Shown: positions 2 to 21,480 of the stretch, piece by piece | Numbering within the stretch: the stretch's first letter is position 1 | How the letters are laid out: every line of letters starts with the position of its first letter | Origin: a virus | DNA length: 29,839 nucleotides | UHGV virus genome: UHGV-0042155 | Strand: one strand, 5' to 3' | Position numbers and translations under genes: made by a program | Notes under the pieces: generated by a model | Told to the model about the DNA's origin: nothing | Databases searched by the model: none | Seen by the model: only the letters and a program-made list of their open reading frames with translations

Positions 2-1522
2 TACACTAAATCAGTAAGTTGGCACCATTACCTACCAAGTGGAGGCAAATTTGCCATTGATCTTTTTAGACAAGATCCAAGTCAGTATAAAACTGAGCTC
101 CGCCAACAACTGCGATTAGTGGATTCACGCTCACCTTACGCCAATGATTGGCTACCTCAGGGGTATGCTGATAAAAGCATTTATGCTTTTGGACGTAACG
201 AGTTTTCCAGTATTATTGAATCATCTATCGAATATAAACGTGAAGAAATAATTCGCCGTCTAAATCGTTTTGATCAAGAGTGTGATGATGCCCTATTAAC
301 TCTAGGAATTGATAAGGCCATATTAGAAAATTTATTTTCAGAGTTAACAGGACATGTCATTGGTGAGCGTCTGTATACACATGATATTCGTCTTAACGAG
401 TTACTAGCCAGAGATGTTAGGTTATTCGAGTCTGAATATTACTCTGCTATGTTGGACGTAGTACGAGAATCAGATAACAATGATGATTTAAAAAGGTACG
501 TCATATCATTTTTACAATTATTGGTCGGTGCACACGGACAATCTCTTGTTCAACGCCTAAACCAAGAGTTATTTGAGGCTGCACCGGATGATTTACCCAT
601 CTTCGATGATATTACCGGTATGTTCCGTCTGGAGTTTAATCGCATTGGTTCGACAGCTTTGGAACTATTGCTGGAAGAAAATAGAAATTTCAATATTGAT
701 GAGGATGCAACAGCTCTTACACTTTTCTGTGCTATAGCCCAAAAAGTATTAGAGAATCTGTTCACTACAGTACTCGACTACCAGAAATTGATAGATGACC
801 ATTTCCGATATCTCTTCTCACCTTCCACAGAATGGGCTAAATTTACTCGGATGGTTATTTTCCTCAAGATCGCACGCGATTATATTAGTTCCCAGGCACC
901 ATCTATCGAAGATCTTCCCGATCATGGCTATTATCATGACTTAGCTACATTTGATGGTGATCTAACAATTTCAGCCATTGGTACGGCTAATTATAACAGC
1001 CTTCTGGCAGAGGTTTTCCGTGGTATGAATATAGAATTACCACAAATTATTCACCTGAACGGCAGTGTACACGACTATTATAACCCTTATAAAAATGCGG
1101 TTATTACTTGTGAAAATCCAGATAACGTAGACCAACGTCAGATTCATGTTCCATTCATGCTGACGCAAAGCGGTCTTAAGCCTTTAACATCAGTAACTAT
1201 GTCAAGACGATACGTTAGTCTTTTTGATGCTTATGCTGAATCTGATGCTATTGTTGTTGTAGGTTTTGGATTTAATAAAGATGATAGCCATATTAATGGA
1301 CTTTTCCGTGAACTGGTCGAAAATAAAGGACGGAAATTAATTCTTATTTCGAGGCGTGTGGATGGAAGTGTTGAAGAACAGAAACGGCGGTTGCGAAACA
1401 AACTGCGTATTTCGCATGAGTTTAACCATTTGCTAATAGTAATTCCAGTAGATGATCTCACAAGGTGTCAAGGTGACCGACTATGGTTAGAGCAAGTTGT
1501 TGATACTTTGAACGAGGGATAA
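2..1522 (+). CDS. 5'-truncated cargo ORF of the island; hypothetical protein with C-terminal Rossmann-like motifs
   Basis: The reading frame of ORF 119..1522 stays open with no stop codon back to base 2, and the annotated start at 119 is GTG with no Shine-Dalgarno, so the gene most likely begins left of the window. AT-rich. C-terminal motifs TANYN...HLNGS...VVVGFGFNKDD loosely resemble the SIR2-like TTNYD/HLHG/GYSxxD pattern, but no GAGxS motif is visible. Confidence 0.55.
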   Translation, partial: YTKSVSWHHYLPSGGKFAIDLFRQDPSQYKTELRQQLRLVDSRSPYANDWLPQGYADKSIYAFGRNEFSSIIESSIEYKREEIIRRLNRFDQECDDALLTLGIDKAILENLFSELTGHVIGERLYTHDIRLNELLARDVRLFESEYYSAMLDVVRESDNNDDLKRYVISFLQLLVGAHGQSLVQRLNQELFEAAPDDLPIFDDITGMFRLEFNRIGSTALELLLEENRNFNIDEDATALTLFCAIAQKVLENLFTTVLDYQKLIDDHFRYLFSPSTEWAKFTRMVIFLKIARDYISSQAPSIEDLPDHGYYHDLATFDGDLTISAIGTANYNSLLAEVFRGMNIELPQIIHLNGSVHDYYNPYKNAVITCENPDNVDQRQIHVPFMLTQSGLKPLTSVTMSRRYVSLFDAYAESDAIVVVGFGFNKDDSHINGLFRELVENKGRKLILISRRVDGSVEEQKRRLRNKLRISHEFNHLLIVIPVDDLTRCQGDRLWLEQVVDTLNEG

Positions 1523-1611
1523 AGCAGCTGATGATGGTGCTATAACCATTATGGTTTCTATTAATACTCGCCAGCCCTTATCTCTCTGATAAGGGCCCTA
1601 ATTAATGCTAG

Positions 1612-2235
1612 TTAATTATTACTACACCCAAACGATCTATAACCGTCATCAAAGTTCTTGCTTTTCACTTTGGTGAGATAATCAATTCGATTCAGTAAAT
1701 CGTCGGGATAAATATCATTAAGAATATCATCACGATTCAGGGTATATTTACCATTAGAAGGATACTGTACTAGGTGCTGTCCCTCTTCGGGAGTTATACT
1801 TAATGCGCTGCACCATGCCGAGGTGATCATAGTTCTTAACGTATCTTCATCAAGATTGAAATCCCCTAAGTGGTAGTAAGCATCCTTGTTCAGAAACAGA
1901 AATACGTGAAAATGACGCTTACCATTCTGGGTAAATTCCCTCACCCACGCATAGCGGAGCGTATTCGGGTGTACCCGTTTACCTTCTTTACGCTTGCGCT
2001 GTTCATCTGCTGCCAGTTTGGCTTTCAGTGAATTGGTAAATCTTGATATAGATCCTGAATCAGTATTAGCGATACAGGAAATAGTATCACCATTATCCAG
2101 CATAACCGGGTCATGCAGATCCACCCGTATTGCCAGTGTACGTCCGTGTTCTTTAACAGATTTTGTAATAACATCGATAATCCTTTCTTTGTATGATTTA
2201 ACATGACTGCCATACTCGCTATCGTAGATATTCAT
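1612..2235 (-). CDS. inovirus Gp2-like / YfjJ-family protein
   Basis: 207-aa ORF with the motif RYAWVREFTQNGKRHFHVFLFLNKDAY typical of the YagK/YfjJ (inovirus Gp2-like) family; lies next to the YfjI-like gene as in CP4-57. Confidence 0.75.
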   Translation of the reverse strand: MNIYDSEYGSHVKSYKERIIDVITKSVKEHGRTLAIRVDLHDPVMLDNGDTISCIANTDSGSISRFTNSLKAKLAADEQRKRKEGKRVHPNTLRYAWVREFTQNGKRHFHVFLFLNKDAYYHLGDFNLDEDTLRTMITSAWCSALSITPEEGQHLVQYPSNGKYTLNRDDILNDIYPDDLLNRIDYLTKVKSKNFDDGYRSFGCSNN

Positions 2236-2459
2236 AATAATTCACCCCTCGATGGATAACAGTCATCGCATTACTGGCTATGGCCTACTAGTGATATATA
2301 TACAGGCATGGTTAATTGCAATATAATAACTATCCGACACTGAATTTTAGAAAAATAGTAGCCACAGCCTACGATGACTGATTGAAAGTTACTCTTTAAT
2401 TAGTTGTAATGAAGATAGGTTAATAAAACAATTATTGCGTCCTATCTTTGTTCTGTTCG

Positions 2460-3872
2460 TTATATAAGAATATCAACAGGTTGTATGAAAATGGTTTTCC
2501 CTATCTTCTCCGCCCGTATTTTCTTTTGCGAATAAAGTGTACTGAGAAGCTCATTCGCTTTGCTCCGATTCCTGAACCGGTTCGGACCATATTGCAAGAT
2601 GGTTGTCTTCCTGATATATGGCACCACACACCGGTAGCAATAATCTTTTATCCACGAATAAAGTTCATCTGCTTCTGAACTAACCAACAGCAACGTCTGG
2701 GGTTTAGAGAAAATTCTCACATACTCATCCACATACCAGGCGCTTATCTCTACTGCGGCTTCTACGGCACTGAGGGGTATATCCCCTTCATCACCATTAA
2801 ATTTATGCAGCAGAGCGGCAATCCTTGCCATATTTTCCGCCATTTTAGAGGCGTAATCCTTAAAGCCAGACAGGAAGCCAATCAACCCCATTTCTGACTC
2901 GACCTTGTTATAAAATTCGATCCAGTTCTTTTCGGCTTCTGCAGAGAAACGTAGGCACTGACGCGCATTTTCATCATTTCTGACAATGCTCTCGTTAACG
3001 ATCTCCATCAATCGTTTATGAAATACCGGTAGATGCTCGCTTGATATAACCGGGCTGGTAATTTGTCTGTAACCCTGTGTTGAACTAGGCTGACACATCA
3101 AACACCGCGCGAAGAATCCGATCCCTTTCGCTGTATCGCCTTTACGCTCCAGATACCCTTTTTTGAACACATCAGGCTGAACCATCAACGACAGTGTCAT
3201 TCTGGCGTCTTTGATTAATTTATCTGGCTCGCTTTTTCTTTCCACAGTAAACATTGCGCCATCCCACATTTTATTGATGAAAGGCAGTTCATTCAGCGCA
3301 TAGCCGTTAAAAATGGTACCAGCTTCATCAGACATAAGCCCGATGGACCGCCAACAACCACTGAGATAGTCTTTTATCGCCGCTGGTGTGGCATCATTGA
3401 ATATCTGCCTGAACCTGACCGGTGCTTTCGGGTTCGCCGACAGCAGCATTTTCAGCCGTTCATTCGTTGTGGAGTGATCTTTGTTACGGCGAATATCTGA
3501 TTTCAGTTTTGATATCAGGGCTTTCTTTTCAATGTTAAAAGTCGTTTCCTCATTCCGCCAGATAATTAAATCTTGGGTATATTTTTCAAAGCATGCTTCT
3601 TCCAGTTGATACAATGGCTTCATTAGCAGTTTGTCCACCGTGCTTTTGCGTTCACCAGAATCCGCCAGTGTCAGTAAAAAAAGTGATACTGGGCTGCGCA
3701 GATTATTCAGTCGGCACACATCAATCCGGTTCTGGCAGGCAAGCGAAATAACCCCCAACACCGATGCAGCAATCAAAGCCTGGGGTGCCTGCGTATGCTG
3801 TTCCACTTCATAAACCGCATTTCTGATGATCTGCGGGAAGACATGTACAGGGAAAGGACGACCACACGACAT
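2460..3872 (-). CDS. DUF3987-family (YfjI-like) protein
   Basis: 470-aa ORF of the size, strand and position of YfjI, immediately downstream of alpA in a CP4-57-like arrangement. Confidence 0.75.
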   Translation of the reverse strand: MSCGRPFPVHVFPQIIRNAVYEVEQHTQAPQALIAASVLGVISLACQNRIDVCRLNNLRSPVSLFLLTLADSGERKSTVDKLLMKPLYQLEEACFEKYTQDLIIWRNEETTFNIEKKALISKLKSDIRRNKDHSTTNERLKMLLSANPKAPVRFRQIFNDATPAAIKDYLSGCWRSIGLMSDEAGTIFNGYALNELPFINKMWDGAMFTVERKSEPDKLIKDARMTLSLMVQPDVFKKGYLERKGDTAKGIGFFARCLMCQPSSTQGYRQITSPVISSEHLPVFHKRLMEIVNESIVRNDENARQCLRFSAEAEKNWIEFYNKVESEMGLIGFLSGFKDYASKMAENMARIAALLHKFNGDEGDIPLSAVEAAVEISAWYVDEYVRIFSKPQTLLLVSSEADELYSWIKDYCYRCVVPYIRKTTILQYGPNRFRNRSKANELLSTLYSQKKIRAEKIGKTIFIQPVDILI

Positions 3873-4002
3873 AGATACCTCTCATTCTATTAATTTAATA
3901 AATAATTCAGCGAAATGGCTATTCTGCTATTAATAGCGGAAATAGCAGGATGACTACCGACAATCCGATGACAGCAATTGAGTATGAATTCATGTAGCAT
4001 CC

Positions 4003-4215
4003 TCAAATAAGTTTGCTGCGTTGCGATAGCCATTCTTCAATCTCTGATTCAACCCATCCAACAGATTTCACTCCGAGCATTCGCTTTTTGGGGAAGGAAG
4101 CATCGTAACGTGGTGATTTGGGGTTCAACCAATCGTAGATTGTTGCTCGTGCCATACCAGTTTTTTGGATAACAGCAGGTAAGCGGAGTATCCTAACGGT
4201 TGATGGATTATTCAT
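4003..4215 (-). CDS. alpA: AlpA-family phage transcriptional regulator
   Basis: 70-aa ORF MNNPSTVRILRLPAVIQKTGMARATIYDWLNPKSPRYDASFPKKRMLGVKSVGW..., near-identical to E. coli AlpA as recalled. Confidence 0.9.
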   Translation of the reverse strand: MNNPSTVRILRLPAVIQKTGMARATIYDWLNPKSPRYDASFPKKRMLGVKSVGWVESEIEEWLSQRSKLI

Positions 4216-4340
4216 GCTTGATTGCCTCTTATTAGTTCATTTTGGTTGTAGAAAGATTAGCGGCAAGCATCAATGCAAAAAATCCGTGTACCAAAAAAAC
4301 ATTTTTTACAACACTTAACTAATTGATATTTGGTGTATTT

Positions 4341-5219
4341 ATGTTGTCAGCGATTGAGTTTTGCGAAGAAATTAGTCAAAAATCGGATTGGCTTGCTGGG
4401 CATATGGTCGAATGTGATTGGGACATATATGTTGATCTGCTCAGCGAAAGGTATCCCGTGATACAGAAGGAACTAAGCGAGATGCGAGATCAATTCTGGA
4501 ATTCTGATAAGGTAGGAACACGTGTGATTTTGTACAGTGATCCATCTCGTAAGGAGTATAAATATTGTACTGTTGACGGAGTGGAGCAATTAAAAGAAGA
4601 ATATACAGAAGTATATGATCCAGCTCAGGAATGCTGGAAACAGTTAAAATCACGTATTTTCAGGGAAACGTTTTGTCATCTTATTCAGGATGATTTTTTA
4701 ATTAATGATGTGTTTAAGTCACATCTATTTTTTGCCTCAATGTCTTATCAATGGGCAAAATCAGTTATGTCGGAGAATGAATGTGTCGCTATTAAAGCGT
4801 TCATTAAGTCAGCTGAATTATTTGATAGATGTATTGGTATGTCATGGTTTCATGTTTCTGTATGTACCCAAAAAAAATTATCACATGTTAGAGCTAAGGC
4901 CGGAAAACAAGGTGGGAACAGTAAATCAGAGGTATATCGAATAATTCAAGATAAGCTTGTTTATTTGATCAATAACTCCGTACCTGAAGGTGGGTGGAAA
5001 AGTAAAGCAGCTGCGGTGAATGACCTCATTGACCCCTTATGGAAATTTGTCGAAGAGTCAAATTTTGAAATTAATAATCAAAGTAAAAAATATCGGATAT
5101 CAACAATGAGCCCTGATGCATTGGCAGATACCATTATAAAAAACTGGTCAAGAAATATTGAGAGTATCAAATTGGCTTTCGATAATACGGTTACTAGAAA
5201 AAAGAAAACCAAAGGGTAA
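4341..5219 (+). CDS. hypothetical AT-rich orphan protein at the intA-alpA position (yfjH-equivalent locus)
   Basis: Long ORF convergent with intA; the track start at 4323 is TTG, the first ATG is 4341. Low GC relative to flanks. No recognisable motif. Confidence 0.55.
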   Translation: MLSAIEFCEEISQKSDWLAGHMVECDWDIYVDLLSERYPVIQKELSEMRDQFWNSDKVGTRVILYSDPSRKEYKYCTVDGVEQLKEEYTEVYDPAQECWKQLKSRIFRETFCHLIQDDFLINDVFKSHLFFASMSYQWAKSVMSENECVAIKAFIKSAELFDRCIGMSWFHVSVCTQKKLSHVRAKAGKQGGNSKSEVYRIIQDKLVYLINNSVPEGGWKSKAAAVNDLIDPLWKFVEESNFEINNQSKKYRISTMSPDALADTIIKNWSRNIESIKLAFDNTVTRKKKTKG

Positions 5220-5277
5220 AATTCCGTATTACCTATAGGTGAGTTATCAGCACCCATTATGGGTGCTGATAAAGGAT

Positions 5278-6519
5278 TCATCCTACAAGACGTATTCCCC
5301 TAACCCCACTATTCACGATACTGCCGCTATCTGCTGCTTTAACAAAATCAGCCCACCACTGCATCATCGGTCGTCGTTGCTCAAGATAGTCACTTCGATT
5401 GTAAGCGCGACGTACCTCATTCTTATCTACATGAGCAAGTGCAGCCTCAATAACATCAGGCGGAAATCCTTCCTCATTGAGTGCCGTACTGGCAATAGAA
5501 CGTAAGCCGTGTGAAACGAGTACGCCTCCTAAACCAGCACGCTTAAGGGCTGCATTTACTGTCTGGCTGTTCATAGGCTGGGTAGGCTTAATGCGACTGG
5601 GAAAGATAAATTCTCGACCACCGCTGAGAGACTTCATTATTTCCAGAATAGCGAGAGCTCCATCAGATAATGGAACCGTATGCTCCCGATTCATCTTCAT
5701 TCGAGCAGCTGGAATTTTCCATTCGCTAGCATCGAAATCGATCTCATCCCATCGAGCCTCAGCAGCTTCGGCAGGGCGGGTGATGGTGAGAAGCTGCCAC
5801 ATGAACAGGCATCGTGTGGACAGGCTGATACTTGCCGTACGCATAGTCTGCATTAGCTGTGGAAGTTGACCTGGGTGGATGCTTGGCATGTTTTTCTTTT
5901 GCGGTTTCTCGAATGCTTTCCCGATGTTTACGCTGGGAACCGCATCAATCAGGCCTGTGTTCTGCGCATAAATCATGACTTCGTTAATACGCTGACAAAG
6001 GCGGCGGACTGTCTCTAATGCACCTCTGGCCTGAACCGGATGAACTGCTTTAACCAAAGTATGAGCCTTAATCTCAGTGACACTGATATCACCGATTGCC
6101 GGGAGAACATCCCTCTCAAGCGAGCGCCAGATATCGTCGGCATAGTCCTCTGTTACGCTGGCTTTCTTCACATTCCACCAACGCTCGGCAACTAACCGGA
6201 AAGTGTTGGTTTTGGCCTCTTGAGAATTTCTCACCTGTTCTTTCTGATGTTCCTGAGGATCAATGTCTTTCGCCAACAAAACTCGAGATTCAGCTCTGAG
6301 TTTACGCGCATCAGAAAGGGAGACGGCTGGATAGGCTCCGAAGCTCTGCTTGGTTCGCTGCTTGGTCAGAGGTCGATAGTAACGGAACTGCCAGAGCTTA
6401 CTACCGCTGGACTTGATTAGCAGAGTAAGCCCGTCACCATCATACAGCTGGTAATCGGCATCTTTAGGTTTGGCGGCTTTGATTTCCGTATCGGTTAACG
6501 GCTTGGTTTTTCTTGCCAT
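5278..6519 (-). CDS. intA: P4-type tyrosine integrase (CP4-57 IntA-like)
   Basis: 413-aa ORF MARKTKPLTDTEIKAAKPKDADYQLYDGDGLTLLIKSSGSKLWQFRYY...; length and N-terminus match CP4-57 IntA; sits next to the tmRNA 3'-end fragment. Confidence 0.9.
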   Translation of the reverse strand: MARKTKPLTDTEIKAAKPKDADYQLYDGDGLTLLIKSSGSKLWQFRYYRPLTKQRTKQSFGAYPAVSLSDARKLRAESRVLLAKDIDPQEHQKEQVRNSQEAKTNTFRLVAERWWNVKKASVTEDYADDIWRSLERDVLPAIGDISVTEIKAHTLVKAVHPVQARGALETVRRLCQRINEVMIYAQNTGLIDAVPSVNIGKAFEKPQKKNMPSIHPGQLPQLMQTMRTASISLSTRCLFMWQLLTITRPAEAAEARWDEIDFDASEWKIPAARMKMNREHTVPLSDGALAILEIMKSLSGGREFIFPSRIKPTQPMNSQTVNAALKRAGLGGVLVSHGLRSIASTALNEEGFPPDVIEAALAHVDKNEVRRAYNRSDYLEQRRPMMQWWADFVKAADSGSIVNSGVRGIRLVG

Positions 6520-6543
6520 GGGGAGTCTCCATGCGTTTAGGCC

Positions 6544-6641
6544 NNNNNNNNNNNNNNNNNNNNNNNNNNNNNNNNNNNNNNNNNNNNNNNNNNNNNNNNN
6601 NNNNNNNNNNNNNNNNNNNNNNNNNNNNNNNNNNNNNNNNN
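6544..6641. other. assembly gap (run of N)
   Basis: 98 consecutive N characters. Confidence 0.99.
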
Positions 6642-6953: not shown

Positions 6954-8126
6954 CTACAGAGCTGCTGAAATGGCGGTTTTCCCGTCGTATTCAGCCAGGT
7001 ATTTACCGTAATTGCGGAACAGCATTTCCGGCCCTTTATGCCCCATCTGCCCGGCAAGCCAGAAAAGGTTTACGCCCTGGCTAATGTGTCTGGTGGCGAA
7101 TGTGTGGCGGGTCTGGTACGGGTTACGGTATCGAACGCCAGCTTTTTTGAGGGTTGGCACCCATGCTTTTTTTCGTATTGCGTCGGCGTTCGCCCAGGGC
7201 TCTCCCGTTTTAGGGTCGCTGAAAATAAACTCGCTTTTCATGAAAGTGAATTGTTTCTGCGCCTGCAGCGCGGCCAGCGCCTCGCTGTTTAATTCTACTT
7301 TACGGGTACCGGCTTTTGTTTTGGTGCCTTTCAGAACGCCAACAACACTCGCCGCCTGAACGTGAGCTGTTTTAGCGATATTGTCGAGATCAGGCCAGCG
7401 CAACGCACACAGCTCAGAGCTGCGTAAACCTGTATTGAATGCGAAACGGAACAGGTTTTCCCATTCCGGATAACTGCAGCTCTGGTAAATGGCGCTGATT
7501 TCCGCTGGTGTGAACGGATCAACTTCGTAATCGTCACTATTCGGGCTGCTGTCGATCACGTGGTACCGACTCGCGCTGACAAGGGTTACCGGGTTGATAG
7601 TCAGCAGGCCGTCTGTCACCGCTTCATCTATGGCGCTGCGCAGAAACGAGAGGTTATTCCTGATTGTTTTCAGCTTTGTTTTTCTGCTGGCGATCCAGTT
7701 TTTGAGGACCGCAGGGGTCAGTTCCGATACATGCATTTTGTGCAGCGCAGATAGCGCAGACAGGCACTTTTCATAACCGCCAATAGTGGACGGCGAAAGG
7801 TTGCGGTTCTGGCAGATTTTCAGATACTCGTCCAGGTAGGACTTAATATTTTTGGTTTTCTTCACTACCCCGAACAGCTCCAGTTTTTTGGAGGTGGGGA
7901 AGTATTTCGCATAATCGAATGTGCCGCCGGCGATCTGATTCTGTATCTCCCCCAGCAGGCGCTCGGCATACTTCACGCCGCGCGCGTTTGCTTCCATTCT
8001 GGAAAGGGGCTCCCGGCAGAGAACCCCCTTGTAGGTGAATGTGATCACCAGGGTGTCGCCAGTTTTATGCTGGCGAATGGTTACTCCTCTTGGGAGAGAT
8101 AATGATCCTTGTTCTTTCTTGCCCAC
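6954..8126 (-). CDS. lambdoid-phage tyrosine integrase
   Basis: 390-aa ORF with an N-terminal arm-binding-like region and C-terminal catalytic region (R...HTFATRH...Y); transcribed toward the att core, overlapped at its 5' end by xis. Confidence 0.9.
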   Translation of the reverse strand: MGKKEQGSLSLPRGVTIRQHKTGDTLVITFTYKGVLCREPLSRMEANARGVKYAERLLGEIQNQIAGGTFDYAKYFPTSKKLELFGVVKKTKNIKSYLDEYLKICQNRNLSPSTIGGYEKCLSALSALHKMHVSELTPAVLKNWIASRKTKLKTIRNNLSFLRSAIDEAVTDGLLTINPVTLVSASRYHVIDSSPNSDDYEVDPFTPAEISAIYQSCSYPEWENLFRFAFNTGLRSSELCALRWPDLDNIAKTAHVQAASVVGVLKGTKTKAGTRKVELNSEALAALQAQKQFTFMKSEFIFSDPKTGEPWANADAIRKKAWVPTLKKAGVRYRNPYQTRHTFATRHISQGVNLFWLAGQMGHKGPEMLFRNYGKYLAEYDGKTAISAAL

Positions 8127-8290
8127 TTTGAAACCTCCGTTAAGTCTATCCAGCGTTCTTTAACGCCATCGACTTTTAATACATGGACACCCTCTTTCCA
8201 TAACCCCCTTTGTATCCGTTTGTTAACGGCTTCAACCGTTTCTCCGGCGTCCCGGCAGTAGGTTGAAAGTGGTACGCAATCAAGACTCAT
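8081..8290 (-). CDS. excisionase-like protein
   Basis: Internal ATG at 8290 of ORF 8081..8434 gives a 69-aa protein MSLDCVPLSTYCRDAGETVEAVNKRIQRGLWKEGVHVLKVDGVKERWIDL...; overlaps the int start as in lambda. Confidence 0.6.
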   Translation of the reverse strand: MSLDCVPLSTYCRDAGETVEAVNKRIQRGLWKEGVHVLKVDGVKERWIDLTEVSKWARKNKDHYLSQEE

Positions 8291-8564
8291 GACCGACCTC
8301 CCGCCCGAATGCCTGGGCATTTTCCAGTTCATTTGCCGCATAGATAAGTGCGTTGTGGTGCGCTCTAAAACCGCCATCAAGTTCGCTGGCCGCTCTCTTG
8401 CGCAAAAAATCGATTGCAGCCTGATAGTCTTCACTGGCTGGCAGATCTCCCACGAGCATCAGCATGTTTTCCGGGTCGACAGGGATGGTGGTGAGCCCCA
8501 GCTGCTTGGCCTTCGTTGCCAGACGGGTCCAACGCTTAATAATTTCTGAAACTGGCTTATTCAT
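8280..8564 (-). CDS. hypothetical early-left phage protein
   Basis: 94-aa ORF; its stop lies 8 nt downstream of the xis start codon. Confidence 0.6.
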   Translation of the reverse strand: MNKPVSEIIKRWTRLATKAKQLGLTTIPVDPENMLMLVGDLPASEDYQAAIDFLRKRAASELDGGFRAHHNALIYAANELENAQAFGREVGHES

Positions 8565-8575
8565 GGAGCGCCTCG

Positions 8576-8671
8576 CTACCTCACCAAAAATTTATATTCA
8601 ATCAGCGCGCCGATAACGGTGGCCGCCAGTAGCAGGGAAACAATGATGCTGAAAGTGAAGGGCTTCATCAT
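8576..8671 (-). CDS. 31-aa hydrophobic single-TM peptide (below the ORF-track size cutoff)
   Basis: ATG ATG AAG... translates to MMKPFTFSIIVSLLLAATVIGALIEYKFLVR; its ATG overlaps the TGA stop of the upstream 137-aa gene (ATGA), and a GGGG Shine-Dalgarno is present. Confidence 0.4.
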   Translation of the reverse strand: MMKPFTFSIIVSLLLAATVIGALIEYKFLVR

Positions 8672-9081
8672 TTCACCCCTGCTGGTTTGATGGCCTGCAG
8701 TGCATCAACCTCTTTAACGAATCGGTCATGCATCGCGTCCCATTTCTCACACCATTTCTCCATTTCTCGCTTGCGCGCCAGGATACGACGCAGACGGCGA
8801 ACACAACGCTGGTGGGCGGCCAGATACTCAGCCTTTGTTTCCCCGTCTCGCCATACCTCCATATCATCGCGATCAATACGCACTCGCGGGTGACGCTGTG
8901 GAAAACCTGAACGCTCAAAAGCCTCGGTGGTCATGAAGAAAGCCAGATAGCGGATCGCCGTATCGCGGGTGAAGCATTTTTTGACGCGGCCGTGACGGCG
9001 TGCCACGAACAACGGACCTGCCGGGGTATCATGTTGCTGTAATGCCAGGTCGATTGCGCTGGCGATGCGTTTATCAGTCAT
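8668..9081 (-). CDS. hypothetical early-left phage protein (137 aa)
   Basis: Internal start MTDKRIAS... at 9081 preferred over the track's 200-aa version, whose N-terminus is low-complexity and overlaps the upstream gene; ATGA overlap with that gene's stop. Confidence 0.6.
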   Translation of the reverse strand: MTDKRIASAIDLALQQHDTPAGPLFVARRHGRVKKCFTRDTAIRYLAFFMTTEAFERSGFPQRHPRVRIDRDDMEVWRDGETKAEYLAAHQRCVRRLRRILARKREMEKWCEKWDAMHDRFVKEVDALQAIKPAGVK

Positions 9082-15662: not shown

Positions 15663-15974
15663 ATGGATCGCCTAATTAGAGAAATGTCGTATCTCTTTAC
15701 CAAGCAGCGTTTTATGGAGCTTCAGGAAACGGCAAAAGACATCGCAATCGGTCATAGTGATTTTCCTGAGTGTTTCGGTCTTATTGCTGACGCCATCGCT
15801 GAATTTGTTGAAGACACTCCTGATGATGAGTGGCGAGAGCATGAAAAAATCCTTATGCACTACGTTGCTATGCGTGTTCTGACGCTGTGGGGTAACGGCG
15901 ATAAAGTGACTGATGTCCAGTGGGCGCACCCTGGCTGGTTTGGCACTGCTGAAAAGGGGGAAACCATTCAATGA
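15663..15974 (+). CDS. hypothetical phage protein (103 aa)
   Basis: ATG 1 nt after the primase-helicase stop; its stop overlaps the Q-like start. Confidence 0.6.
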   Translation: MDRLIREMSYLFTKQRFMELQETAKDIAIGHSDFPECFGLIADAIAEFVEDTPDDEWREHEKILMHYVAMRVLTLWGNGDKVTDVQWAHPGWFGTAEKGETIQ

Positions 15975-16807
15975 AGTTGGAAGCATCACTAAAACACTTT
16001 AGCCCTCAGGGTGTGCACATCAGCGACGACGTGAAAGGAACCTCTCCGGACCGCCTTACAGGAACAGATGTAATGGCGGCAATTGGCACCACCAGCAGCC
16101 GTGCGCGCTTCGGACTGGCGGCGTTCTTCGGTAAAGCGGGAATCAGCAAAACGGATGAACAGCTCGCAGTTCAGGCGCTGGCGCGATATGCGATGGATGT
16201 CGCACCGAAGAATGTTCGCAAAGCAGCTGGTGGGCAGTTCGGATGGTGCATGCAGATGTTGGCACAATTTGCCTTTGCTGATTATTCACGTTCGGCGGCT
16301 ACAAGCGTGACGTGTCACAGCTGCAGTGGTACCGGACGAACAACCCGCGAACAGATTACCCGCAAGGTTTCGTACCCATGGGGTAAAGCTCCATACTGGG
16401 CCTGCCGCTCTCGTGCTGTTCGACCGTCTGACTGGGAGCAGTGGATGGAGGTAACAGAGGTTGTACCGGCGGTCTGTGATGCTTGCGAAGGCAAGGGAAC
16501 GATCAGCGCCCGTTGTCGTTGCGGCGGTAAAGGCGAGGTTCTAGACCGCAAGGCCACAAGCGAGCGCGGCGCGCCGGTGTTTAAAACCTGCGAGCGCTGC
16601 AGCGGAAATGGATTTTCTGCGGTGCCGTCTACCGCAGCCTATAAAGTGATACTGAAGCGCGTTCCGGATCTGCACGTCAGAACATGGACTCGCAACTGGA
16701 AACCGTTTCTTGAGGCGCTGGTAAGCATTTGTCAGCAGGAGGAGGGAAACGCCGCAAGAGAATTTCAATCTGCAACCAGTTTAGGCGAAGAAGGTGACGA
16801 AATTTAG
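15971..16807 (+). CDS. Q-like late antiterminator (zinc-finger type)
   Basis: Three CxxCxGxG motifs (CHSCSGTGR, CDACEGKGT, CERCSGNGF); last gene of the early-right operon, directly upstream of a promoter-plus-terminator pair and the lysis cassette. Confidence 0.7.
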   Translation: MKLEASLKHFSPQGVHISDDVKGTSPDRLTGTDVMAAIGTTSSRARFGLAAFFGKAGISKTDEQLAVQALARYAMDVAPKNVRKAAGGQFGWCMQMLAQFAFADYSRSAATSVTCHSCSGTGRTTREQITRKVSYPWGKAPYWACRSRAVRPSDWEQWMEVTEVVPAVCDACEGKGTISARCRCGGKGEVLDRKATSERGAPVFKTCERCSGNGFSAVPSTAAYKVILKRVPDLHVRTWTRNWKPFLEALVSICQQEEGNAAREFQSATSLGEEGDEI

Positions 16808-16826
16808 CATTATTACGACATAAGGC

Positions 16827-16856
16827 TTGATTTTGTCCGAAGTTGTCGTGTATGCT
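16827..16856 (+). promoter_or_regulatory. candidate late promoter pR'
   Basis: TTGATT-N18-TATGCT between the Q stop and the tR' hairpin. Confidence 0.35.
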
Positions 16857-16896
16857 TCTAATCATGCGGAGTAACGCCTGAAAGATTTCAACAATA

Positions 16897-16917
16897 AGCC
16901 CCTTGCGGGGCTTTTTT
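16897..16917. terminator. tR'-like terminator, also 3' of the convergent 316-aa gene
   Basis: Stem agcccc / ggggct with loop ttgc, followed by TTTTTT on the plus strand. Confidence 0.7.
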
Positions 16918-17866
16918 ATGGCAGCGAGTTAACGAAAGAACTGAAAAGGGCCTTATCTTTATTGCTAATTGATTTTTTCAAATGTAGTTGATGATTTAAA
17001 GGTTTAAAGTTTTCCTTTGTGAGATATATACATGCTTTCTCAAAACGATCCTGAAGGAATTGAAATCTTTCATTCAGCCTGGAAACTTTTAATCCTAATG
17101 ACATGACCTTCTTCTCAGGAATATCGTCAGGATTGCAATTATTGAGTTCTTCCAGCACAAGGCGAATATCTCTTTCGAAGATTGGCGCTATGTTATAATC
17201 GTTGAGGAGGCATTCAGGATTACGAACAATGCCAATTACTTCGTCGATGAATTGTGGTTTTACATTATCCTCAGCATTTTCATCTTCGTTATCGGAAGGT
17301 TTTTGAGACATAACATTCGACAACTGCATTTCTTCCTTGGTTTTCCTTCTGGGAAGTAAAACTTTTCCATCTCCTAAAGCAGCCATACGTTTCAAAGCTT
17401 GACTCCCGGCTCGGCCAACTACTTTAGAATCTCTTAAATCTAAAATTTTATGTGCGACCCATTCTAATGATGGTTCACTGGCTTCGATTTTGGCTTTTGC
17501 TTGGTAATGGAGAAAAATATTTTTCTTGGCTTCCTTGAGGGCTGTTAGATATCTGTGGAAATTTGCCTTTTTCTCGAGGTCAGTGGCTAGGTTTTCAAAT
17601 GCTATACCGAAGACTTTTGTACCGCAAACGTGACCCAGGTTCGTCTCCAGACCATCCTCAGTAAGAACAAGAAACCCTTTTTTATGGCCTGTTCGACAGC
17701 TCGACTTGCCACACGGGATTTCTTCCGGGAGGTCATCATAATAACCAAAAACATCGGATAATTGTTGATCGGTCAGTTCCAGCCTGGAATGATAGCTTTC
17801 CCGAGCTTGAATTTCTGTCCAGTCATTAATGCGATCAAAGCTATTGCCGTTTTTAATAAAAATCAT
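16916..17866 (-). CDS. hypothetical AT-rich moron protein (316 aa), antisense to the late transcript
   Basis: Long ORF of low GC on the strand opposite the late operon, between tR' and the tRNA cluster; Cys/His cluster CGKSSCRTGH...GHVCG; no recognisable family. Confidence 0.7.
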   Translation of the reverse strand: MIFIKNGNSFDRINDWTEIQARESYHSRLELTDQQLSDVFGYYDDLPEEIPCGKSSCRTGHKKGFLVLTEDGLETNLGHVCGTKVFGIAFENLATDLEKKANFHRYLTALKEAKKNIFLHYQAKAKIEASEPSLEWVAHKILDLRDSKVVGRAGSQALKRMAALGDGKVLLPRRKTKEEMQLSNVMSQKPSDNEDENAEDNVKPQFIDEVIGIVRNPECLLNDYNIAPIFERDIRLVLEELNNCNPDDIPEKKVMSLGLKVSRLNERFQFLQDRFEKACIYLTKENFKPLNHQLHLKKSISNKDKALFSSFVNSLP

Positions 17867-17991
17867 ATCTTCCCTTGCTCTGGTTAGATTGAAAGCACTG
17901 CCGCTTGATATTTAACCATTTCCCTGATTGTTTTTCATCATAAAACCATATTATTGCAAGGGTAGTTTTACCTATGTATCTTCTTGCTCCC

Positions 17992-18068
17992 GGCCCTTTA
18001 GCTCAGTTGGTTAGAGCGTGCGACTCATAATCGCCCGGTCGCTGGTTCAAGTCCAGCAAGGGCCACCA
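17992..18068 (+). tRNA. tRNA with CAU anticodon (Ile2/lysidine-type or Met)
   Basis: Cloverleaf read by hand: acceptor ggccctt/aagggcc, D arm gctc...gagc, anticodon loop ctCATaa, T arm gctgg-ttcaagt-ccagc, encoded CCA; resembles enterobacterial tRNA-Ile2. Confidence 0.85.
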
Positions 18069-18070
18069 GA

Positions 18071-18144
18071 CCGCCACTAGCTCATCGGGAAGAGCGGCAA
18101 CCCAGGTGTTGTGGTACGGGGTTCGAGGCTCCGGTGGCGGACCA
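18071..18144 (+). tRNA. tRNA-like gene with non-canonical 6-nt anticodon loop (possible pseudogene)
   Basis: Good acceptor (ccgccac/gtggcgg), D arm and T arm and an encoded CCA, but the best anticodon fold is gcaac-ccaggt-gttgt with a 6-nt loop. Confidence 0.5.
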
Positions 18145-18146
18145 CT

Positions 18147-18222
<76 letters not shown>

Positions 18223-18225
18223 TAT

Positions 18226-18300
<75 letters not shown>

Positions 18301-18680
18301 GTTTAAGCTTTTCGGTCTGCGATGATGGGTTCCCCGGAGTGACTGGAAAGCGACCTGGTTTTGAATGGGCGCTGCTTTTTGCAAAATTGCTGTGTGAAAA
18401 TACTGACCTTTGGGTTCAGCGCTCATCCAAAAGCATCACGTGAATTCACCAACGCTCATGTACTCTCCAGGAAACAATAAGTGATTCTGAAAAGTTCCGG
18501 TTAGATATTGCCCCGGTCACCGGATGATTTTATCTTTTGGTTCGTGGTGAATCCCCCTATGCGGCGGGGCGTCCAGTCAAACTTTTTTGTCCAGGTTTGT
18601 TTGCGCGGAACTAGTCGGCTGGGGCTGTTCCACCGGGAGGCACCCGGCGCCACCTCCTTGACGGTATTGTTATTTTTCAT

Positions 18681-18707
18681 GCCTGTTCGTCCGAGCAGGC
18701 TTTTTTT
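18681..18707 (+). terminator. strong rho-independent terminator
   Basis: 8-bp stem (18681-18688 with 18693-18700) followed by TTTTTTT at 18701-18707. Confidence 0.6.
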
Positions 18708-18738
18708 GCCCGCATTATCTTCATTGAAAACTGGCAAC

Positions 18739-18909
18739 TCAGAGAATCATCCAAATTAAAAAAGCAGCAACGAGAGCGATTACTAATACATTCTTCGCTT
18801 TTTCTCTTCTGCTGGCCTTCACAAAAGGATTCACTATCCGGCAGTGGCTACACACAAGTGATTCTGGGTTAATTAACTTTCCGCAGTAGGGGCAGGGCTT
18901 GATAATCAT
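18739..18909 (-). CDS. 56-aa zinc-ribbon plus single-TM small protein (below the ORF-track cutoff)
   Basis: Translation MIIKPCPYCGKLINPESLVCSHCRIVNPFVKASRREKAKNVLVIALVAAFLIWMIL has paired CxxC motifs and a hydrophobic C-terminal helix; weak Shine-Dalgarno. Confidence 0.35.
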   Translation of the reverse strand: MIIKPCPYCGKLINPESLVCSHCRIVNPFVKASRREKAKNVLVIALVAAFLIWMIL

Positions 18910-19117
18910 TGGTACTAATTAAGTTGTGAGAACGTAGTCTCATTTAACCACATTTATCGAGTTGTTTTACTAATGGTCTAGTTATTTCAGACATATTCAT
19001 CAATTTCAGGCTCACGGGAATCATCCGCTACGTGCTTTGTTGATAAATCCAGCCCGTGAAGCCTGACCCTTTTCAAACACACACACAGCACCATCCGGAA
19101 AATCGGAGGTGAGGCCT

Positions 19118-19441
19118 ATGAAAATGCCATACAAACAAGATTTCATCGCTGCGCTACTTGCCGCCAAGGAGCAGGGTATTGGTGCAATGCTGGCTTTTAT
19201 CATGGCGTATCTGCGTGGTCGCTATAACGGCGGCGCGGTAACAAAAACGCTAATTGATGCGCTGATGTGCGCGATGATTGCCTGGTTCGTTCGTGACCTT
19301 CTGGACTTTATCGGCCTGAGCAGCAACCTCGCCTACATAGCCAGCGTCTTTATTGGATACATCGGCACCGATTCGATCGGCAATCTTATTAAAAAACTTG
19401 CAGCAAAAAAGGCGGGAGTTGACGATGCAAACCAGTCCTGA
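19118..19441 (+). CDS. S: lambda S-type holin
   Basis: [40 protein letters not shown]... closely matches lambda S including the Met-Lys-Met dual start; the track start at 19109 is GTG. Confidence 0.9.
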
Positions 19442-20865: not shown

Positions 20866-21480
20866 TTATCTCTTTGTTGCGTTCATGGTCACATGGTAAA
20901 CGAATTGGCTAAATTGGTTATCCCAGCGCCCATTATGATTAGCTGCAACTAATTGCATTAACGCCTGCATTAACTTGCTGAACAGCAAGATTAACTTAAG
21001 TCTGTTTTTTGAACTGTCACTATCTAAGGAAACTTCTTCGGTTAATTGATTCTCGGCGTTAAAAATACCCAGTTTTGATTCTTCCATGCTGGGTTCCGTT
21101 GGATGCTGTTTAAAGTATTCAGTCAGAGTATCCGTCAGGCTCTGGATCCTTGAATCAGCAATGCTTTGTATTGATGGATTGTGTGCAAGGTCATTACGCA
21201 TTGAGTTGATGGTTTTAAGTGATTTCATAAGTTCCGTGGGGATTCCCAGGTTTCCCGCCATGGATATTTTAGTATTACATTCGATTAAAAGTTTGTTTTT
21301 ATCTCTTCCAAAGAGATCTTGGCAGTCACAGCATGCGCATATCCATGCTTCGACCATGCGCTCACAAAGTAGGTGAATGCGCAATGTAGTACCCACATCG
21401 TCATCGCTTTCCACTGCTCTCGCGAATAAAGATGGAAAATCAATCTCATGGTAATAGTCCATGAAAATCCTTGTATTCAT
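20866..21480 (-). CDS. hypothetical AT-rich moron protein (204 aa) with Rx4H HEPN-like motif
   Basis: Opposite-strand, low-GC ORF between the lysis cassette and cos, where lambda carries bor; contains SMRNDLAHNP (R-x4-H) and a Cys cluster CACCDC. Confidence 0.7.
   Translation of the reverse strand: MNTRIFMDYYHEIDFPSLFARAVESDDDVGTTLRIHLLCERMVEAWICACCDCQDLFGRDKNKLLIECNTKISMAGNLGIPTELMKSLKTINSMRNDLAHNPSIQSIADSRIQSLTDTLTEYFKQHPTEPSMEESKLGIFNAENQLTEEVSLDSDSSKNRLKLILLFSKLMQALMQLVAANHNGRWDNQFSQFVYHVTMNATKR

Follow-up and report, generated by a model that had tools for sequence, protein, structure and literature searches.

The virus genome UHGV-0042155, a stretch of 29,839 nucleotides (nt) referred to here as the window, carries on its minus strand a 316-amino-acid (aa) open reading frame (ORF) that lies between the late antitermination gene Q and a tRNA cluster. 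The ORF is best explained as an autonomous moron: a horizontally acquired gene inserted backwards between Q, with its late promoter pR' and terminator tR', and the tRNAs. Its product evidently belongs to a large, unnamed family found in phages, plasmids and defence islands. Judging from genomic context and the pattern of conservation, its most likely function is that of an anti-phage protein expressed in the lysogen, a reading to which we assign a probability of roughly 0.45.

A conserved gene with the features of a moron

The ORF runs from ATG to TAA over exactly 16916-17866 (951 nt), which agrees with the ORF listing and with the initial annotation of this DNA. The whole window is identical to a lambdoid prophage of Escherichia coli MS 115-1, where the same ORF is recorded as WP_000576246.1, “hypothetical protein”. 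Comparison with homologues of 88-96% protein identity gave a ratio of nonsynonymous to synonymous substitution rates (dN/dS) of 0.076-0.085, the reading frames of homologues down to 58% identity are free of stop codons, and the N-terminus, MIFIK, is conserved among relatives. Given this low ratio and the intact frames, the ORF is a real gene under strong purifying selection, far above what would be expected of a chance reading frame.

Two hallmarks of a moron are plain in the window and its relatives. The first is a base composition that deviates from that of the flanking genes: the GC content of the ORF is 0.392 (0.36 at third codon positions) versus 0.557 in Q and 0.479 across the window, confirming the low GC already remarked upon, and the ORF lies in a trough of 0.36-0.43. 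The second is presence and absence between homologous phages. E. coli D53-1 contains the empty site, keeping Q, pR', tR' and the tRNAs, with 349 unrelated base pairs in place of window positions 16867-17991.

The ORF also has signals of its own (Table 1): a conserved promoter-like motif, a Shine-Dalgarno sequence and a hairpin at the stop codon. The order RTGAAA-17 nt-TGnTTAAAT...AAGGR-ATG is kept in loci whose proteins are 58-100% identical, among them L018 and L029, where the DNA further upstream is unrelated, and such a motif fits expression in the lysogen. At the other end, the hairpin's T-run overlaps the stop codon (reverse complement of 16916-18). On the minus strand this hairpin folds at -15.0 kcal/mol, lies between an A-tract and a U-rich tract, and is followed by an imperfect U-tract, UUAUUGUUG. 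The initial annotation had taken this hairpin to be the terminator of the ORF as well as tR'. The stable minus-strand fold and the overlap with the stop codon uphold that idea, and the imperfect U-tract and a terminator scan that called 16896-16913 on the plus strand only do not; the hairpin may terminate in both directions, with a plausible, weaker version on the minus strand.

Late transcription is predicted to cross the gene antisense

The PF03589-type Q gene at 15971-16807 is on the plus strand and therefore convergent with the ORF, as had been claimed. The 90 nt 3' of the Q stop codon are conserved in ten loci whose Q genes are 73-100% identical, and all ten show the same succession: TTGAYT-18 nt-TAYNNT, a TAATCATGSG block and, 35-45 nt further on, a GC hairpin with a T-run. 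The stem sequences of this hairpin vary by lineage (GCCCC/GGGGC, CCCGC/GCGGG or CCCTGCC/GGCGGGG). E. coli D53-1, which lacks the ORF, keeps the same arrangement of promoter and hairpin after Q. The earlier placement of pR' and a tR'-like terminator directly 3' of Q thus holds on comparative grounds. In PF03589-type loci the TAATCATGSG block could be a sigma-dependent pause or Q-loading element.

Since promoter and terminator directly follow Q, late transcription must cross the ORF antisense. Q-modified polymerase on its way to the holin gene would run through the ORF (antisense), the tRNAs, an STnc100-family small RNA (sRNA) gene and a small antisense ORF. The antisense orientation to the late transcript, asserted in the initial annotation, is found in every complete enteric locus examined, and the tRNAs at 17992-18300 follow the ORF as stated there.

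The STnc100 gene offers a different candidate for the late promoter unit. Its distance to the holin gene, about 400 nt, is the spacing of lambda's pR'-6S-tR' relative to S, and with pR' placed there, late transcription would not cross the ORF in antisense. We rejected this assignment: lambda 43500-46000 has no STnc100 match, D53-1 has two copies of the element, and the conserved promoter and terminator follow Q in all lineages. Phage vB_EcoS-611R1 carries one copy. STnc100 has been described in the literature as a prophage accessory sRNA related to PasD, and here too it is accessory cargo of the late leader, not pR'/tR'.

The product belongs to a large family with no annotated function

The ORF had been described as an orphan with no recognisable family, a description that has to be abandoned. 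Residues 1-315 of the protein match positions 1-308 of the 309 in the profile phrog_7003 (E = 3.2e-118), a full-length match, although that profile has no functional annotation. A word-indexed search returned 15 close relatives in enterics (56-97% identity), and an exhaustive hidden Markov model (HMM) search with the alignment of close relatives returned 572 clusters, each a representative at 50% identity, at E <= 1e-3; 305 were found at E <= 1e-10. Nearly all of these are about 300 aa long and align end to end, which amounts to a single architecture. The family ranges over Beta- and Gammaproteobacteria, with named sources that include Burkholderia, Ralstonia, Sulfuricella, Massilia, Endozoicomonas, Ewingella, Yersinia and Kluyvera, and it extends to environmental Betaproteobacteria such as Gallionella and Methylotenera. 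It is broader than phrog_7003 in that it reaches beyond phages into chromosomal islands and plasmids.

Members with a named source are all annotated as “hypothetical”, and none has a precomputed Pfam domain. For profile building and conservation analysis we used 134 diverse members, with a mean column identity of 23%. Pfam gave no credible match for these 134 sequences, and searches of NCBIfam (June 2026) and of the PDB sequences returned nothing credible with either the single sequence or the 134-member profile. The remote-homology and structure searches taken together produced a large unannotated family and neither a characterised relative nor an analogue in the PDB or BFVD. We found no functional description in the literature on the accession, on the Q-S slot or on the Shiga toxin phage phi467 discussed below.

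Conservation is concentrated in a predicted zinc domain

Seven positions are identical in all 134 members (Y43, C52, C57, G64, G78, C81 and G82). H61 is kept in 133 of the 134, followed by N286 (98%), N76 (95%) and E179 (92%). The two Cys/His motifs picked out in the initial annotation are present, CGKSSCRTGH as residues 52-61 and GHVCG as residues 78-82; in the latter C81 is invariant, and H79 is not conserved across the family, where H, K and N each account for about 30%. Because C52, C57 and C81 are invariant and H61 almost so, the pattern C52-x4-C57-x3-H61...C81 points to a CCHC zinc site.

An AlphaFold2 model computed with the 134-sequence alignment reached a mean predicted local distance difference test score (pLDDT) of 96.2 and a predicted template modelling score (pTM) of 0.86, superseding a run with 13 close homologues only (pLDDT 69). 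In the model, a β-rich N-terminal domain (~1-87; strands 2-6, 9-13, 36-43, 64-69 and 74-77, helix 79-86) is predicted to be followed by long helices across 88-164, a small β-α-β insert at 168-213 with a poorly conserved acidic loop, and a C-terminal helical bundle at 226-313. Conservation falls almost wholly within the zinc domain, the only conserved residues outside it being R173, E179 and N286, and the helical two-thirds of the protein evolves freely. The C-terminal half is rich in charged residues (about 32%), as noted earlier. The protein has no hydrophobic or transmembrane segment and no signal peptide (maximum hydropathy 0.82), and no helix-turn-helix (HTH) or other known DNA-binding fold was detected in it.

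Treble-clef zinc fingers consist of a knuckle, a β-hairpin and a helix, in that order. The predicted order in the ORF protein resembles this layout, with a knuckle at C52-x4-C57, a hairpin at 64-69/74-77 and a helix starting at 79 that carries C81 in its first turn. It departs from a treble clef in that the third ligand is apparently H61, located between knuckle and hairpin, rather than a second residue of the helix, and in that no Pfam zinc-finger family matches the protein. An HNH/His-Me nuclease, which the spacing H61...N76...H79 brings to mind, was considered and rejected: no HNH profile or fold matches, the hairpin strand has Thr at its end, and H79 varies across the family.

The gene occupies moron slots in diverse phages

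A close subfamily is found in the interval between Q and holin, antisense to the late genes, in 26 IMG/VR loci and in phage vB_EcoS-611R1, so that the ORF is conserved in related prophages; the replication, immunity and lysis modules differ among these phages. In one of these loci, L029, the family gene follows the tRNAs and no Q match was found. Among 5,426 E. coli genomes, 29 carry the gene (7 of the window type and 22 of the 611R1 type), several of them Shiga toxin-producing E. coli (STEC): the gene is rare and patchy in this species.

The proposal that this is the accessory slot in which Stx phages carry their toxin genes finds support in the Stx2f phage phi467 (LN997803.1; locus L106, 4001-4875), where Q and stxAB flank a third, more divergent copy in antisense orientation. 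That copy is frameshifted, with HMM positions 1-127 in one frame and 111-274 in another, and is annotated as ORFs of 132 and 173 aa. Locus L031 (5887-6507) and E. coli AW1.7 contain 5'-truncated remnants adjoining Q, of which only the 3' half is left.

More distant full-length members are found in the Klebsiella phage ST13-OXA48phi12.2 (27% identity) and in the Pseudomonas Hollowayvirus phages Atpa001 and D14S (hhalign probability 100%, E = 1e-39). Their copies lie between the early-left operon and the cI/repressor gene, a rex-like slot associated with lysogeny, on the strand opposite to both.

The closest analogues of the ORF are architectural and not related by protein family: stx, the antisense nmpC and defences of the BstA type. 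It shares with the morons of the Q-S leader (stxAB of Stx phages, the nmpC/lc porin of DLP12 and PA-2) the slot between Q/pR' and holin, the putatively autonomous unit, the deviant GC content and the presence or absence among related phages. In DLP12 nmpC, too, runs antisense to the late operon, in the order quuD(+)-nmpC(-)-essD(+). Unlike stxAB and nmpC, the ORF encodes a predicted cytoplasmic zinc protein, neither toxin nor porin, with no relationship to them in sequence or fold.

Outside phages some copies of the gene lie near defence genes

Sixty loci, drawn from a variety of beta- and gammaproteobacterial species, served to survey the contexts outside phages. In 58 of them the genes up to three places away on either side were grouped by homology, and the largest group covered 3 of the 58 loci. 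Since no neighbour is conserved, the family gene is a standalone unit. A two-gene system with a conserved partner was rejected on this count, and the co-oriented neighbours of the phage and plasmid copies likewise have no family in common.

Matches to the two neighbours on either side, pooled over loci and not counted per locus, form three groups: mobile-element genes (integrases, Tn3 and DDE transposases, a Mu-like gene and TnpB), known defence or toxin-antitoxin genes, and ordinary housekeeping genes. The defence or toxin-antitoxin group comprises Gabija GajB in two loci (E = 1e-243), a CapP/RmrA-like HTH-M78 gene in two, a CBASS cyclase with a four-transmembrane effector, RexA, AbiTii, HEPN_LA2681, HipA, IetA, NsnA, PD-T4-2, PD-T4-6 and a mads gene.

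Individual settings illustrate this range. In a Burkholderia locus the family gene comes immediately after a complete Rosmer pair (RmrT 1.7e-56, RmrA 8.4e-131) in an AlpA island, and a metagenomic island has the order Type I restriction-modification (R-M), Argonaute-associated nuclease, family gene, with an integrase at its end. The Sulfuricella copy adjoins Phd/PIN, an oral-metagenome lineage has the gene between a Vsr-like DUF559 gene and carB, and the Endozoicomonas copy is surrounded by unannotated genes. The family is also present on 20 plasmids, among them a Vibrio vulnificus plasmid, with its copy near Hok/Gef, an antirestriction gene, a zincin-like metallopeptidase and a topoisomerase, and a Burkholderia plasmid, with its copy near an integrase and VapC.

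In two further loci, from Aquabacterium commune (L069) and a Comamonadaceae metagenome-assembled genome (L085), the family gene (~8001-8900) stands between two genes that are homologous across both loci: upstream, on its own strand, is a 428-aa gene, and downstream, on the other strand, one of 930 aa. These flanking genes may be the Gabija-like AAA_21 and UvrD matches seen in the pooled scans.

A candidate anti-phage protein of the lysogen

We propose that the ORF encodes a soluble 36-kDa protein whose N-terminal domain would bind zinc via C52, C57, H61 and C81 and whose helical remainder varies rapidly. In the lysogen, where Q would be absent, transcripts from pR' would end at tR' and the gene would be expressed from its own promoter. 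Context and conservation suggest that the protein would then act as a single-gene anti-phage or superinfection-exclusion factor, in which the variable helical part might recognise a component of the invading phage and the invariant zinc domain might serve as effector or nucleic-acid-binding core. Upon induction, the geometry of the locus implies that Q-modified RNA polymerase would pass tR' and run antisense over the gene, damping its expression in lytic growth.

Such a protein would resemble BstA, RexAB, SieB, Tab and Tai in its location, next to the repressor gene or at a moron position in temperate phages of several genera, and, by analogy with these lysogen-expressed single-gene defences, it would plausibly need self-immunity in its own lytic cycle. 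BstA is reportedly about 300 aa long, a size comparable to that of the ORF protein. The ORF protein would differ in how self-immunity is achieved, which in our proposal is by antisense late transcription and not by an aba DNA element or a partner protein. None of the 134 family members matches the KilA-N domain or the PADLOC models for BstA or RexA. Identity with Tab was rejected, Tab being an 83-aa protein encoded between the terminase genes, as was identity with Tai, which lies elsewhere in phi80, a phage that is not among the tblastn matches.

If the ORF does encode a defence protein, it would represent a widespread single-gene system with a new fold, comprising at least 572 clusters in Beta- and Gammaproteobacteria, as well as a simple testable case in which antisense late transcription lets a prophage silence its own immunity gene. 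Because at least one Stx2f phage has stx in the same Q-S slot as the gene, the gene also bears on the cargo that travels with Shiga-toxin genes. With a small standalone gene and few invariant residues (C52, C57, H61, C81, Y43, N76, E179 and N286), mutagenesis and phage-panel assays would be straightforward. The more far-reaching version of the proposal strikes us as doubtful: that this is a new family of single-protein anti-phage defences with an unseen fold, a CCHC zinc domain joined to a variable helical sensor, which moves among prophage moron slots, plasmids and defence islands and which in lambdoid phages obtains self-immunity purely through Q-dependent antisense late transcription, without partner protein or DNA element.

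A number of observations count against an anti-phage function. PADLOC-DB 2.0 (5,027 models) gave no match to the ORF protein at E <= 1, and among the 134 members it gave nothing beyond single spurious matches with E > 1e-3. The structural model suggests no activity: the best Foldseek hit against the PDB had E = 2.1 and is no analogue, BFVD gave no meaningful TM-score, and the protein contains no recognisable catalytic motif. The promoter of the ORF is a motif only and was not called by a simple sigma-70 scan. Decay has set in for the frameshifted copy of phi467 and the 5'-truncated copies of L031 and AW1.7. Outside phages, many neighbours of the family gene are housekeeping or unannotated genes, and the association with defence genes is suggestive rather than statistical. 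The setting of the Vibrio plasmid copy is leading-region-like and fits anti-defence equally well. The ORF remains a solid, if unproven, candidate for a new family of defence genes. Prophage morons without known function are common, so the ORF is not surprising in kind.

The best-surviving alternative is an anti-defence or establishment factor that lets incoming phage or plasmid DNA get past the immunity of the host, perhaps through binding to nucleic acid or to one of the host's defence proteins. The company of the V. vulnificus plasmid copy and the carriage of the family on phages and plasmids would suit such a role, and a fast-evolving helical part attached to an invariant core also fits an arms-race inhibitor. 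We nevertheless consider it improbable: the phage copies run antisense to lytic operons, early-left or late, and have their own promoter motif, which is the wrong arrangement for a factor of early infection, and many standalone chromosomal copies lie beside R-M, Rosmer, Gabija, CBASS or housekeeping genes with no mobile element nearby.

Less credence still goes to a prophage regulator, that is, a zinc-finger protein binding nucleic acid or RNA polymerase that tunes the lysis-lysogeny decision, damps Q or late transcription, or acts through paQ-like antisense transcription into Q. The gene is tightly linked to, and convergent with, PF03589-type Q in all complete enteric loci and lies next to cI in three other phages; the imperfect minus-strand terminator between ORF and Q makes read-through antisense to Q conceivable, and basic residues of the zinc domain (CGKSSCRTGHKKG) adjoin the ligands. 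Against this, D53-1 lacks the gene yet keeps the same Q, pR' and tR', so that the gene is dispensable for that module, most family members are chromosomal or plasmid genes outside phages with no Q or cI nearby, and the protein has no detectable HTH or other known DNA-binding fold.

Least probable of all is a lysogenic-conversion factor that benefits the host in ways unrelated to phages (stress tolerance, colonisation or virulence), like stx, nmpC/lc or bor from the same genome region: the slot is a classic one for conversion genes, with stx2f beside the family copy in phi467 and nmpC antisense between quuD and essD in DLP12, and several carriers are STEC strains, but the protein, without signal peptide or transmembrane segment, is neither a surface nor a secreted factor, and the occurrence of the family in Gallionella, Methylotenera and Sulfuricella has no link to virulence.

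Features of the window around the ORF

The positions of the features discussed above are collected in Table 1.

Table 1 Features of the Q-to-holin region of UHGV-0042155, in window coordinates.
Feature	Position	Strand	Remarks
Antitermination protein Q	15971-16807	+	PF03589, E = 6e-54; phrog_127
pR'-like late promoter	16827-16856	+	-35 TTGATT 16827-16832, 18-nt spacer, -10 TATGCT 16851-16856; conserved with Q
Conserved initial-transcribed block TAATCATGCGG	16859-16869	+	Contains a -10-like hexamer; consensus TAATCATGSG
GC hairpin AAGCCCC-TTGC-GGGGCTT with plus-strand T-run (tR'-like)	16896-16913	.	Abuts the ORF stop codon
316-aa ORF (36.2 kDa, isoelectric point 6.5)	16916-17866	-	WP_000576246.1; phrog_7003 member
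Shine-Dalgarno AAGGGA	17871-17876	-	4 nt before ATG; AAGGR in all subfamily loci
Extended -10-like TGgTTAAAT	17910-17918	-	Putative ORF promoter; motif only
-35-like ATGAAA (RTGAAA in relatives)	17933-17938	-	17 nt upstream of the -10 hexamer; motif only
tRNA cluster, late leader	17992-18300	+	Met/Ile2 (CAT), odd tRNA-like gene, Thr (TGT), Gly (TCC)
STnc100-family sRNA gene	18519-18711	+	Rfam RF02076, 71.7 bits; strong intrinsic terminator 18681-18700
Lambda-family holin, first late protein gene	19109-19441	+	Ends the ~2.25-kb late leader holding the antisense ORF

Within the tRNA cluster, ARAGORN reports a tRNA-like gene at 18071-18144 (+), between tRNA-Met/Ile2 (CAT) and tRNA-Thr, whose anticodon is undeterminable. 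It has no RefSeq annotation and no Rfam tRNA match, and it is conserved in most related loci; in L013 it is called as tRNA-Leu.

Two other reading frames oppose the late genes. A 56-aa ORF at 18739-18909 (-), absent from the RefSeq annotation and antisense to the late leader, is a possible second small moron; it has a CxxC...CxxC zinc ribbon at its N-terminus (DUF2116/Zn_ribbon_3, E ~3e-5), and its C-terminal tail, VLVIALVAAFLIWMIL, is hydrophobic. At ~20866-21480 (-) (22167-22781 in L001), between the lysis genes and terminase, the antisense “hypothetical” gene for WP_001097361.1 (204 aa) falls in a second trough of low GC (~0.41) and looks like a further moron.

Near the start of the window, ~190-6600 (1492-7892 in L001), there is a P4/CP4-57-like island with an IntA integrase, AlpA, YfjI, an inovirus Gp2-family protein and a 467-aa hypothetical protein. 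It abuts the lambdoid prophage's own integrase (~6954-8126), giving two tandem mobile elements.

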